In this document: positions 1-6,000 of the stretch, one piece after another
Layout of the letters: every line of letters starts with the position of its first letter
How positions within the stretch are numbered: position 1 is the stretch's first letter
UHGV virus genome: UHGV-0077717
Direction: 5' to 3' (one strand)
Length of the DNA: 30,805 nt
Source: a virus
Program-made: the position numbers

Positions 1-3000
1 AATGGTTCGCGTCAGATCGTTGACAGCCGCACTCCATGACGGGTAAAAAGTGGATAAAATAATTTTACCCACCGGATTTTTACCCATGCTCACCGTTAAG
101 CAGATTGAAGCAGCAAAGCCGAAAGAAAAACCATACCGCCTTCTCGATGGTAATGGCCTGTATCTTTATGTCCCTGTATCAGGGAAAAAGGTATGGCAGC
201 TTCGCTACAAGATTGACGGTAAGGAGAAAATCCTGACCGTAGGAAAATATCCGCTTATGACTTTGCAAGAGGCAAGGGATAAAGCATGGACTGCGAGGAA
301 AGACATCTCGGTTGGCATCGATCCGGTAAAAGCGAAAAAGGCTTCGTCTAACAACAATTCCTTTAGTGCGATTTACAAGGAATGGTACGAGCACAAGAAG
401 CAAGTCTGGTCAGTAGGCTATGCAACTGAACTTGCAAAAATGTTTGATGACGACATTTTACCTATCATCGGCGGCCTTGAAATTCAGGATATTGAGCCGA
501 TGCAACTGCTGGAAGTAATCCGCAGATTTGAAGATCGCGGTGCAATGGAGCGAGCCAACAAAGCCCGCAGAAGATGCGGCGAGGTTTTCCGTTACGCTAT
601 TGTCACTGGTAGGGCTAAATATAACCCGGCACCTGACCTTGCTGACGCCATGAAGGGATACCGCAAGAAGAACTTCCCGTTTTTACCTGCCGACCAGATC
701 TCGGCATTTAACAAAGCACTGGCAACATTTTCAGGAAGCATCGTATCGCTCATTGCGACCAAAGTTTTACGCTACACAGCCCTCAGAACAAAAGAGCTTC
801 GTTCCATGCTATGGAAGAACGTCGATTTTGAAAACAGGATTATCACCATTGACGCCAGTGTGATGAAGGGACGCAAAATTCATGTGGTCCCGATGTCAGA
901 CCAGGTGGTTGAACTTCTCACTACGCTAAGCTCAATCACCAAACCAGTATCAGAGTTTGTTTTTGCCGGGCGCAACGATAAGAAGAAGCCGATCTGCGAG
1001 AACGCGGTGCTGCTTGTGATCAAACAAATCGGCTATGAGGGTCTGGAAAGCGGTCACGGATTCAGGCATGAATTCAGCACAATTATGAACGAGCACGAAT
1101 GGCCTGCTGACGCTATTGAAGTGCAACTGGCACATGCCAACGGCGGATCTGTGCGTGGAATATACAACCATGCTCAGTATCTCGATAAACGCAGAGAAAT
1201 GATGCAGTGGTGGGCAGACTGGCTTGATGGGAAGGTTGATTAAAGAACAATAACAGCGCGTTAATATAACCTTTTTAATAAACATAAAAACAAACAAACC
1301 ATCTTTAATTAACAATCTGATTGCTAAAGATTCTTATTTGAATGAGCCATCCTTGGCGATTTATATTATATCAGGGAATTATCATATTCCCTGTTGTTAC
1401 TATATATGGAGTATTTTCTGGCTCGTTGACTCTACTAACGCCACGCTCTACGTTTCCAGTGTGATTTAAGTAACTGCCACCTGATGTAATAGATTTCTGA
1501 AACTCTATTTTCCCACCTTGAAACGTATTCCCTGTAGAGTTTACTCTGAATGCTCCTGAAGCATTATTTATTTTGAATGCGCATGTTTCTCTGCTCAATA
1601 TACATTGATTATTTTTATATGACATTGTTATTGGTCCACTTCCTGCCTCATCTTTATTTAAAGTAAAATGACTATTAAGCCCTGACGCTCCTGTTCCAGA
1701 CTGTGAAACGTCATGTATTTTTACGATTTGCTCTGATGGTCCTTGAAAAATAAAACCAGTATTAGATAATGATCCGGACAGCATGCTAAACCGCGTTGCA
1801 GCAACAACATTCTCAAGACTTGAACCTGATCCTGAAACATCACAATTAATTAGTTCAATCCAACTACCACCATAATATGAAGCGTTTGAATTCCTGATAT
1901 ATGTCGATTCGATTTTCACCCTTTGCTTAAGAGAATCAGGCAGAGCATTCCCTGCTTGCTTGTTTAACACAATGTCACAGCCGAATATTTTTGCCCCACG
2001 CCCATAAACATTAGAGCTTTGGGTAAATCTAAGCCCTCTATCGGCATCAGTTGAGTTTTCTCCAATAGTAACATCAATCAATGTGACGGCATCATTGTTT
2101 AATCTTGCACCTTTTGTAAATATTGCATGCAATATGTTAAGGTTGGTAACTTTTGAAGTTGCAATTAAATAATCTCCGAAATGATGGGTTACAGTTATAT
2201 TATCTGCTGACTCACCATAATATTCACCACTGTTTGCAATGCTTAAAAGACCATAATTATTATCAAATCGCAAATTGTGCTCAAACATACCATGCGTAGT
2301 AAATGCACCATTTCTTGTTCCTGTTTCTCCGCAATCTCTTACAGAGCAATAACTTGAACCACTAAAATCAACTACGTGCCTGCCTGAAATATTGCGTAAT
2401 CTTCTTGCGTGGCATTCATATGCGTTATTGAATTGAACAACATGATCGGACCCTGGAACTCTTGGGAAATTTGTTTCCGTATCATGAACAAAAACATTCC
2501 TGACCATGGCAGTTACAACCATTGGGTAAGGGTGATTAAATCCATACCCGAGACAAATGTCAGCGTTATTTACGTATTCAAGGGACACAAGTGCGCATGA
2601 TTGTTGACTGGCAAATCCATCGCCACCACCTGAAGCATCTGTTATGTTTTGATTCCATTTTACGCCTTTAAAAGCAATTCTTACATTTTCTATTGGGGTT
2701 ACATTTCTATATGTCAATACCCTTCCGACATCAAGATGCCAGCCTGTTTTATAATCAACTCGCAATTGAGTTATTGCTCCACCACTGCCCTGCACTTGTG
2801 TCATTACATTTATTTCTCTACCTACGGTTCCGCCGCCAACATCCGATGACATAATAACCCACTGTCTATTCTCAAAAAGAGAGTTGTTCGTACACCAATA
2901 TGTTGTATCTCCTTTTGATATTTTATTTGTTAGAGTAAAAGAGTCTATTATATCTCCAGCAGTGCCGCGAAATGCTAGAATGCCAGGAAAACGATAGTTA

Positions 3001-6000
3001 CTTGGATTTGTAGATCCACTTCTATCAGGAATATGCCCTTCCGGAGCATTCCATATTATCTCCGTATCAGGCATATCAATTGCCAGGTCGCCGCGTGTAA
3101 TTACAATATTGTTTGTTAGTATCAACTCTTTTATATTTGTTGTGATTTTTTTTGCTGGTGAGTTAATTGCTTTATGAAATGCTTCGGTGTTGTCAGCGCC
3201 ATCTTTAGCTCCGAAATCCTCAAGCATAACATTATATATATCATCTGATTTCCATACATTTCCTTCTGATGTGAAAATTATCGTTCCTCCGTTATCTGTC
3301 AATCCATCAGGATTAACACTACGGAAAAACCTTCCACCTCCTGAATAGCTGTCAGAGTAATATCCCCTCAGTCTTATAACCTGTCCATCATAACTTGGTT
3401 CAATTGTTCTCAATGTAGATATATCTTTGCATTCTCCTATATACTTATAGCCATCATCACTTTTCAGCAAATATGAAAACTGATCTGGATCGTACTTCAG
3501 CACATTAGGGAAATAGAACTGCTGTGATCCATATGCATCGTACACAGCCATAGAATGCCCTTGTACAGTAACGAACTTAGCAATCTGTCCGTTATATACA
3601 GGATAACCAGCAGCGTTAATGATGATTGGTTGAGAAACAGGAACGTGAGAGCCGTCTTCGTTCTCTACATAAACCGGAATCTGGTTTTCAGTATTTACCG
3701 GGTCAGTGTCAATTTTACCGATATAAATTTTGCCATTGGCTACGGCTTTAAAAGAACGAGCCATAGTGAAGAGTTGCGAAGGCATCGATACGATCACATT
3801 GGCTGTAATGTCTGTCATTTAATTTGCTCCAGATGCAAGGAATCGCCGCAGCGTGGCTACGGTGAATTTTGGGCATAAAAAAAACCCAGCCGAAGCTGGG
3901 TCGTTGCGTTGGTTATCTGTCAGTAGTTATGTACTGAAGGAGGTAATTCTTTATTCTTAAGTCTCATCCATGCGGAAAGATTCGTTGGTCCGTCTGGTTC
4001 ATTAATATCAACATCTCGTGTGTGGTTTATTAAAACGTCTCTCGCCATTCCGATAACATACGAGAATTCATGACCGTAGTCGTAGCATCTGCCGGAATAG
4101 TTCGATTGAATTTGTTTTAATGCCGGATACAGTTCGCGGAATAATGCCTGTGAGCGGTTGGCATAATCCCATAACCATACAAGGCTGTTTGCTTCTTTTG
4201 CAGAAAGCTCGTTGGTTTTCTTCTCTTGTTTGCCGATGAACTCTCCTTCAAGCGGAACGCGAGCTGCAAGTGACAGTGCTTCGGTAAACTGCTCCTCACT
4301 AATTTCTTTGTACGAACATCCAAAATGGGATTTCAGTGACGACCACATGGTGATCATCGCCTTAGCCTGTTTTTCTTTTGGCAGAGACTGACCGCGACTC
4401 ATGACGAGTTGTTTAATGGCTTCCTGCTGTTCAGTGGTGATTTTACCCGGCAACGCCTTTTTAGCTTTGCGTGGGTTAACTACATGGCCTTTAGTCCAGT
4501 ACTCGTAGAGCACATCGTCACACTCTTCCTGATACTGGATTACCTTGTCGCGGATTTCAGGGCGGACTTTGTTAGGGCTGATGGTTTGCAACCAGCCATT
4601 CAGTTTACGTAAAGCAAGGCAAATCATGGTCTGCACACCGCCAACTGAAGGTATTGCGATTTCCACAATACCTTTAGCAAATCTTTGTTTTAACTTTGTA
4701 AACTGTGAAGCCCAATCCATACCCATTCCCTCAACGATAGGTTTCATTGGGGTATACGGTTCGCCGTTGTGATTGACAACATAAAGCTCTGCGCCGTGGA
4801 ATGGTACATTGATAGTAGATGCTGCTGTTGCTATACTTTTCATGTCAATATTTCCTAAGACGATTTGTTGATACCGAAGCCCTGACTGTTCCAGCAGTTG
4901 GGGCTTCACTGTTTTTGTAAGTCACTGTAGCTATAAAGCCACTGACCACTCATTTTTGATTTGATTGACTCTACTGAGTCACGGCAAGGAATGATTCCGC
5001 CTGACATCATTCTGATTTCCGTAAATTCACCACTCCTTATCGATTCAATGCCATCAATGTTAACTAAAGATTTACCTCTACCAAGTGCATTCTCATAGCC
5101 AATCTCATCAACCTCAATAAACCTCATACCGTTATCCCCTCTCTCTTCAGGCTGTCCAACACCCGTTTAATTACTTCTGCGCTGAATGAGCGACACTCTT
5201 CCTTTGCTTTTTCTTCAAGGATTTTTTCTAGCTTCTCTGGCATACGCAGTGTTTTTACCTTCATTGCATCCTCCGTTGTATGTGGTACGCATACATAGTA
5301 TTTAGGTACGCATTGATAGTCAATAGATACCTACATATCCTGTGGTAAAAAATTATTCAGGATGCGCCGATGTCTGATCGTAAGTACAAAAACCCTCAAG
5401 TGAATCTGAGGCTTCCTGTAGAGATAAAGGAACGTCTTATTGAACTGGCTGAGGCTAATTCTCGTTCATTAAATGCTGAGATGGTCGCGGCACTTGAAGC
5501 GTGGACCGAAAAAAACAAACACATTCAAGCGCTAGATCTTGCAACTATAGCATCGCGACTGATAGAGCTTGAGCATGATGTTGAGAAGTTAAAATGTATG
5601 CATGGCAATGGTGAAAAATGAAACGTATCGCTATCCTATTGCTCCTGTGTCTCTCGAGCATAGCTAACGCAGAAACAAAATCAGACGATAGCAGTTTTGA
5701 TGAAATACAAGGCCTCATGATAGCTTCTAAAATGGCTGGTATGTGTGGTGCAATCAAACAAATGGCAATATTCCAAGAATCTACAAACATGCCAGGTGGG
5801 AATGAATTCTTACAGAGATTCCTTACTACAGAGCAAGCAAGGCTCGGGATGACTCCGCAGCAATTTCTTGAAGCATGTCAGAAATCAATCTCTATTTATA
5901 CCACCTATTACAATATGAGCTCTGAGAAAAAATAGACTAGGATTTCAACGGCTTCCGCGTCCCTGAGTGATTCTGTTGCGGATTTGCTTCTTGCGGTGGT

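Follow-up and report, generated by a model that had tools for sequence, protein, structure and literature searches.

A P22-like prophage tailspike with a conserved head-binding domain and an apparently acquired cassette of neck and predicted beta-helix

The tailspikes of the characterized P22-like phages are built on a common plan, in which an anchor holds the trimeric spike on the tail and a beta-helix serves both to bind a surface polysaccharide and to cut it. Conserving the attachment part and swapping the sugar-cutting domain is a well-known route by which phages change their host range. Here we describe a tailspike gene of the viral genome UHGV-0077717, of which we analyzed a stretch of 30,805 nucleotides, referred to as the window throughout. 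With a probability of roughly 85%, we regard its product as the spike of an E. coli prophage of the P22-like (Lederbergvirus) type, integrated at argW, that has acquired a neck and beta-helix cassette, which would bind and cleave a surface polysaccharide of the host as a putative endoglycosidase. The parts of the gene and its immediate surroundings are as follows.

1371..3818, minus strand: tailspike open reading frame of 815 amino acids, with an ATG start and GGAG just before it
1371..1373, minus strand: stop codon of the tailspike gene
3477..3818, minus strand: P22-type head-binding (virion-anchor) domain, codons 1-114, from Pfam PF09008, PDB and phage matches
3231..3476, minus strand: small beta 'neck' between anchor and beta-helix, codons ~115-196, from sequence matches and the junction in the homolog P0009
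1374..3230, minus strand: predicted right-handed parallel beta-helix body, receptor-binding and putative depolymerase, with a beta-rich C-terminal part, codons ~197-815
1244..1370, no strand: AT-rich intergenic spacer, moving together with the receptor module, from E. coli genome matches
50..1243, plus strand: IntS-type integrase (Pfam Phage_integrase and Arm-DNA-bind_3), which marks the prophage end by argW/yfdC

With P22 gp9, Sf6 gp14, HK620 gp9 and the CUS-3 spike the protein has the head-binding domain in common, residues 1-115 being near-identical to those of Sf6. The gene also occupies the same position, after the immI/antirepressor region and by the integrase, shares the KYDPDQF junction, and is likewise predicted to encode a beta-helix. 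It differs in its receptor domain, which has no detectable sequence similarity to those of the four phages, and in an extra neck of the CBA120 TSP2 type. Moreover, the integrase comes directly after the spike and no O-antigen-modification gene follows, unlike in those four phages.

The anchor is assigned by several comparisons. Residues 1-113 match the Pfam family Head_binding (PF09008) over the full profile length with an expectation value (E) of 1e-65. The best match among solved structures is to residues 1-115 of Sf6 gp14 (E 4.7e-64), which are near-identical in the alignment, and P22 gp9 is matched at E 1e-55 with a confident alignment that runs to about residue 115. A preliminary description of this DNA, made from the sequence alone, had recognized the first ~115 residues as the P22 gp9 head-binding domain and had called the remainder unrelated to the P22 sequence. 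Both statements agree with our results. A phmmer search without the head-binding domain finds no P22 chain at E<=1. Close homology to the P22 endorhamnosidase is ruled out, the phmmer alignments to P22 being confident to residue ~115 and ending by residue 186.

At the DNA level the similarity ends sharply on both sides of the cassette. Megablast matches to 28 Lederbergvirus-type phages, at 85-93% nucleotide identity, all stop at gene nucleotides 339-342. In the alignment with HK620, Sf6 and CUS-3 the sequence is conserved through ...AAGTACGATCCAGATCAGTT (KYDPDQF), and beyond this point all four sequences are abruptly different. At the 3' end, integrase matches in ~1,900 E. coli genomes break off at positions 1236-1243 of the window (stop codon 1243/1244), and homology that runs on through the spacer into the spike is confined to the 15 genomes that have this tailspike. 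Because the breaks fall at codon ~114 and at the integrase stop, the exchanged segment can be delimited to ~1244..3476.

The base composition changes at the same place. Guanine-plus-cytosine (GC) content is 38.5% for the whole tailspike gene vs 48.5% in the rest of the window. The head-binding domain has 42.0% GC, with 40.0% at third codon positions (GC3) and 43.0% at first and second positions (GC1+2), and the 2.1 kb outside it have 38.0% (GC3 26.1%, GC1+2 43.9%). This fall of GC3 from 40% to 26% is located exactly at the homology breakpoint, the neck being low already (GC3 25.7%). Across all 30.8 kb, the 2,103-nucleotide segment with the lowest GC starts at 1231 and thus corresponds to the receptor module; its value of 0.373 compares with a window mean of 0.477 and a standard deviation of 0.034 (binomial z about -9.6 by arithmetic). 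The AT-rich receptor module proposed earlier is therefore also found by computation, as the minimum of a non-uniform profile.

Sharp breakpoints at both ends, the coinciding composition break and homologs that stand behind unrelated anchors together support a mosaic origin of the gene. The same breakpoints, composition and variety of anchors uphold the mosaic part of the recent horizontal acquisition that had been suggested for it, whereas 'recent' holds only in a relative sense and no donor was found. Similarly, the initial picture of a two-part protein was right in separating the anchor from a foreign part, but the protein consists of three modules: anchor, neck and beta-helix body.

In the neck region, residues ~120-218 match CBA120 TSP2 (5w6p/6w4q; E ~3e-12) and also Pantoea WceF (6tgf), and tblastn finds phiV10 and several Ackermannviridae tail-fiber genes with ~40% identity to the ~115 residues that immediately follow the head-binding domain. 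CBA120 TSP2 (ORF211) and the phiV10 tailspike, both O157-specific, differ from the present protein in their beta-helix bodies, which are unrelated in sequence, and in their N-terminal anchors. In P0009, a homolog of 735 amino acids on a 2.4-kb contig, a divergent head-binding-like anchor is joined directly at the residue equivalent to ~197. Since this protein skips the neck, residues ~115-196 can be considered a separable module. In the contig collection, the precomputed matches assign Phage_tail_beta (PF27114) to the identical protein and to homologs of it, with the position not stated; our search of a local Pfam copy did not reproduce it and gave only PF09008 at E<=1. Our guess would be that PF27114 belongs to the neck.

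For the body, a structure prediction (as a monomer model) and a Foldseek search for structural neighbors point to a right-handed parallel beta-helix receptor domain, in line with the beta-helix-like composition noted in the preliminary description. The best Foldseek matches are the Klebsiella capsule depolymerases K64-1 S2-4 and K1 lyase. Among the neighbors with a pectin-lyase fold are the Pam1 tailspike (7eea), polygalacturonase (1bhe), K64-1 S2-4 (9k4a) and the K5 lyase (2x3h). Because all structural matches show 9-16% identity and template modeling (TM) scores of 0.3-0.45, they tell the fold class only, and since hydrolases, lyases and epimerases score alike, the chemistry is not transferable from these neighbors. 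Sequence searches return no match of the body to a solved structure at E<=1, no match in the local Pfam copy for the body or its remote relatives, and no match in NCBIfam, and the coverage by PHROGs is confined to residues 1-257. The best-conserved block of the family contains R480, H481, D484, H509, E513, H514, N574 and D576, which are invariant down to ~20% identity. From this conservation D484, E513 and D576 emerge as candidate catalytic carboxylates, together with H509 and H514, and the combination of fold and conserved residues suggests enzymatic cleavage of a polysaccharide.

The family of the body is small and its homologs are rare. Searching 5.8 billion proteins by a word index yielded about 13 clusters with the body, and an exhaustive phmmer search of 1.84 billion cluster representatives gave 121 at E<=1e-3, only 14 of them at E<=1e-30. 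These homologs are spread over at least five phage architectures, and the anchors ahead of them are Head_binding, Tail_spike_N, tail-collar (in remote relatives) or none that is recognized. Siphovirus-like contigs and prophages, as well as contigs of other prophages or phages, have homologs of 61-70% identity that follow Tail_spike_N or a different anchor. Further settings are a prophage with baseplate-type tail genes and a contig type with a GpA-type terminase, and homologs also occur in Klebsiella prophages.

Only one relative is present in the phage database, ESCO8_00245 of the phi92-like myovirus ESCO8 (UPW37474.1; extract L001 7863-10097). It is the nearest relative outside the P22-like prophages, with 69.6% identity across the entire receptor domain, carries a different anchor and occupies the slot of the endosialidase gp143 in phi92; at the DNA level, an identity of 71% is limited to gene nucleotides 691-1830. 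The ESCO8 gene has 43.4% GC (GC3 38%) in a genome of 37.8% GC. As the two anomalies are opposite, above the genome in ESCO8 and below the window here, the gene looks foreign in both. ESCO8 as a recent donor is ruled out by the identities of 70% (protein) and 71% (DNA) and by a copy that is richer in GC than its own genome.

Within P22-like prophages the copies are 98.4-99.6% identical in nucleotide sequence, and the elements that carry them vary both in their set of immI genes and at the 5' end of the anchor, which indicates that prophages within one host group exchange the cassette. In K71-77 (CP040886.1), one of the 15 carrier genomes, the DNA is ~99% identical over gene nucleotides 144-2448 and the first 143 nucleotides are divergent. 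An HNH endonuclease gene lies directly upstream of the tailspike in this strain (NZ_CP040886.1; extract L005 4343-4831).

The type of receptor domain has in fact been listed before. Pas et al. (2023, Virol J 20:174, Table S1; PMC10408124) define subtypes by at least 30% identity across the receptor-binding domain, and their subtype X8 consists of ESCO8_RBP and K71-77_Prophage_RBP, with no serogroup given. The absence of a serogroup for X8 can be traced to the isolation of ESCO8 on an O78 strain. Being 69.6% identical to UPW37474.1 and ~99% identical in nucleotide sequence to K71-77, the present protein is a member of X8 and thus an ordinary modular tailspike of an already listed receptor-domain type.

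Which glycan might such a spike recognize? Of 5,426 complete E. coli genomes, 15 have the full-length gene, 67 a small cluster with the order galF-wzy-wzx-hypothetical-GT4-pssD-pssE-gnd, and 302 the O8 locus. At least 14 carriers of the spike belong to the 67 genomes with the small cluster and have an O8 mannan locus as well; the remaining one, NZ_CP091773.1, is not among the 60 small-cluster genomes listed. The three hosts examined in detail each have an O8-type wzm/wzt mannan locus, the small cluster and a colanic-acid locus. The small cluster comprises six genes of 29.6% GC between galF and gnd, and the O8-type ABC-transporter mannan locus adjoins his. In NZ_CP027205.2 (extract L003) the two O-polysaccharide loci lie at 9463-15341 and 20547-32627, and extracts L006 and L007 are arranged likewise. 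The wza-wzb-wzc genes of group 1 capsules are absent at galF in these hosts, the comparison covering this site and not the group 2/3 kps loci. Judged by strain names and genome features, the hosts appear to resemble sequence type 410 (ST410), and because the O-locus proteins are identical in the three hosts examined, the carriers seem to be largely one lineage.

Individual O8 loci are damaged. The annotation of WCHEC025943 marks manC as a pseudogene interrupted by a stop codon (extract L003 20547-21962), and MS10495 has a group II intron (ltrA) between rfbK and wzm and a shortened rfbK (extract L006 16882-18549). Such lesions may reflect variable O8 expression.

Additional information comes from the neighborhood of homologous spikes. 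Directly downstream of P0007 and P0008, which are 62-63% identical to the present spike and belong to two prophage types, lie the genes gtrA-gtrB-gtrC, which in both operons encode 120, 305 and 483 amino acids (extracts L011 11272-13999 and L017 10308-13035; one of them in Klebsiella pneumoniae). As gtrABC is an O-antigen glucosylation operon, its place after two homologs points to O-antigen-type receptors for the family. The O8:ST410-like E. coli would most likely offer the beta-helix an O-antigen-type glycan as its target, and this could be the O8 mannan or the glycan of the small cluster. A more specific proposal, which we put forward tentatively and consider possible rather than probable, is that the body represents an uncharacterized glycoside-hydrolase family whose substrate is the O8:ST410-type glycan, that is, O8 polymannan or the product of wzy-wzx-GT4-pssD-pssE. 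An endo-mannosidase activity was reportedly described for coliphage Omega-8 decades ago and, to our knowledge, has never been tied to a sequence; a search of our literature collection for coliphage Omega-8 or a phage endomannosidase returned nothing relevant. If the second glycan were the substrate, the strains would expose two glycans that act as phage receptors, and two alternative P22-like spike cassettes would serve them.

Other genomes with the same glycan cluster have a P22-like prophage in which the anchor is shared but the receptor domain differs. One of them is strain BA22372 (NZ_CP040397.1; extract L022 3501-7093), whose prophage has a head-binding domain that is 93% identical. Its spike continues into an unrelated receptor domain of 726 amino acids and is followed directly by a prophage-borne gene annotated as 'WzyE family oligosaccharide polymerase', which may be a seroconverting polymerase. 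It could be this cassette that is the one for the Wzy-dependent glycan, which would speak against the small-cluster glycan as the target of the spike described here.

Several observations weigh against reading the cassette as an endoglycosidase for a glycan of these hosts. The structural neighbors of the body are no closer among hydrolases than among lyases or epimerases, and no recognized catalytic Pfam or CAZy family is found on it. ESCO8 was isolated on an O78 strain, although a specificity drawn from this host is uninformative, the phage having several fibers and a narrow host range. The AV101 TSP1, which stands for the 'O8' subtype of Pas et al. and for which O8 specificity was shown experimentally (PMC10791037), has no similarity to the tailspike (best BLASTP E 1.2), and AV101 is not matched by tblastn of the phage collection. 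An assignment by way of TSP1 or TSP3 fails, as the tailspike is similar to neither. Finally, clonality, visible in the identical O-locus proteins of the three hosts, confounds the host association, which also fails to tell the O8 mannan from the galF-gnd glycan since all checked hosts carry both.

These points have to be set against the alternatives, one of which concerns the origin of the module. Tailspike genes of P22-like phages generally lie somewhat below the structural genes in GC, and the head-binding domain of this gene, at 42%, is already lower than the injection genes at 48-50%. One might thus see the AT-richness as intrinsic, produced by codon-usage selection or amino-acid composition and bearing no trace of foreign origin. 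We consider this very improbable: GC1+2 is alike in both parts (43.0 vs 43.9%) while GC3 drops at the breakpoint, which places the change in codon third positions and not in the amino acids. The receptor domains of HK620, Sf6 and CUS-3 have 44-46% GC and GC3 values of 36-42%, compared with 26% here, so AT-richness is not a general property of P22-like receptor domains. The ESCO8 homolog, with its GC3 of 38% and a GC content above that of its own genome, demonstrates that the protein family does not impose a low GC either.

Two further alternatives concern the function of the module. It might bind its receptor without cleavage, as a non-enzymatic, adhesin-type beta-helix, which is improbable given that even relatives of ~20% identity keep D484, E513, D576, H509 and H514 without exception and that the characterized spikes of P22, Sf6, HK620 and CUS-3 are enzymes. 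It might also be a depolymerase, possibly a lyase, that acts on a capsule or exopolysaccharide and not an O-antigen endoglycosidase. Such a role would be in line with K64-1 S2-4 and the K1 lyase as top Foldseek matches, with homologs in Klebsiella prophages, with the position of the ESCO8 homolog in the slot of the phi92 capsule endosialidase, and with the lack of a single O serogroup for the subtype of Pas et al. Yet matches at such low identity and TM score reveal the fold class only, gtrABC follows two of the homologs directly, and the hosts keep a colanic-acid locus without wza-wzb-wzc of group 1 at galF; a capsule or exopolysaccharide as the target therefore appears unlikely to us.

In the favored reading, that of an acquired cassette with endoglycosidase activity, residues 1-114 would fix a presumably trimeric spike to the tail of the virion. 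The cassette of neck and right-handed beta-helix would have been gained by recombination at the KYDPDQF boundary. The beta-helix most likely binds the surface polysaccharide of the host and would cleave it as an endoglycosidase; in this way the virion would reach the outer membrane and the host range would be determined.

The remainder of the window fits a prophage of this type, of which it represents one end. Its virion genes from 1371 onward all lie on the minus strand, in the order tailspike, antirepressor, Arc-family genes, then homologs of gp16, gp20 and gp7, an Sf6-type needle and gp10. Membership among P22-like genomes is evident from gp7, an injectosome translocase (gp20-type), a gp16-like DNA transfer protein, the needle knob, gp10, antirepressor and Arc, all in P22 order, with the tailspike gene downstream of the injection genes and the immI region. 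Two features adjoin the tailspike gene upstream.

3883..3902, minus strand: terminator-like hairpin and T-run, upstream of the tailspike gene and after the antirepressor gene, from a pattern scan
3920..4909, minus strand: P22-type antirepressor

The position of the hairpin, which is a consensus match only, equals that of tANT upstream of HK620 gene 9, and the pattern scan gave no terminator-like site downstream of the tailspike gene on the same strand. A 212-kb metagenome contig from the human gut has a gene for the identical tailspike protein, adjoining yfdC and mlaA, and complete E. coli genomes show the same arrangement at tRNA-Arg (argW), adjoining yfdC. RefSeq names the gene 'phage tailspike protein' or 'phage head-binding domain-containing protein'. 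The immI region contains small open reading frames at 5618-5935 (plus strand; 105 amino acids, with a signal-peptide-like N-terminus) and 6175-6606 (minus strand; 143 amino acids, lipoprotein-like, with an LSGC motif), which have no Pfam match and PHROGs matches of unknown function only; they may be morons.

The combination of an anchor with an exchangeable receptor domain adds one more case to a textbook pattern and introduces no new principle. Receptor domains of tailspikes determine host range and are of interest as serotyping reagents, as glycan-stripping enzymes and as swap-in modules for engineered phages or pyocins. Along these lines, a depolymerase for the surface of ST410-like strains, a multidrug-resistant lineage, could be useful once characterized.

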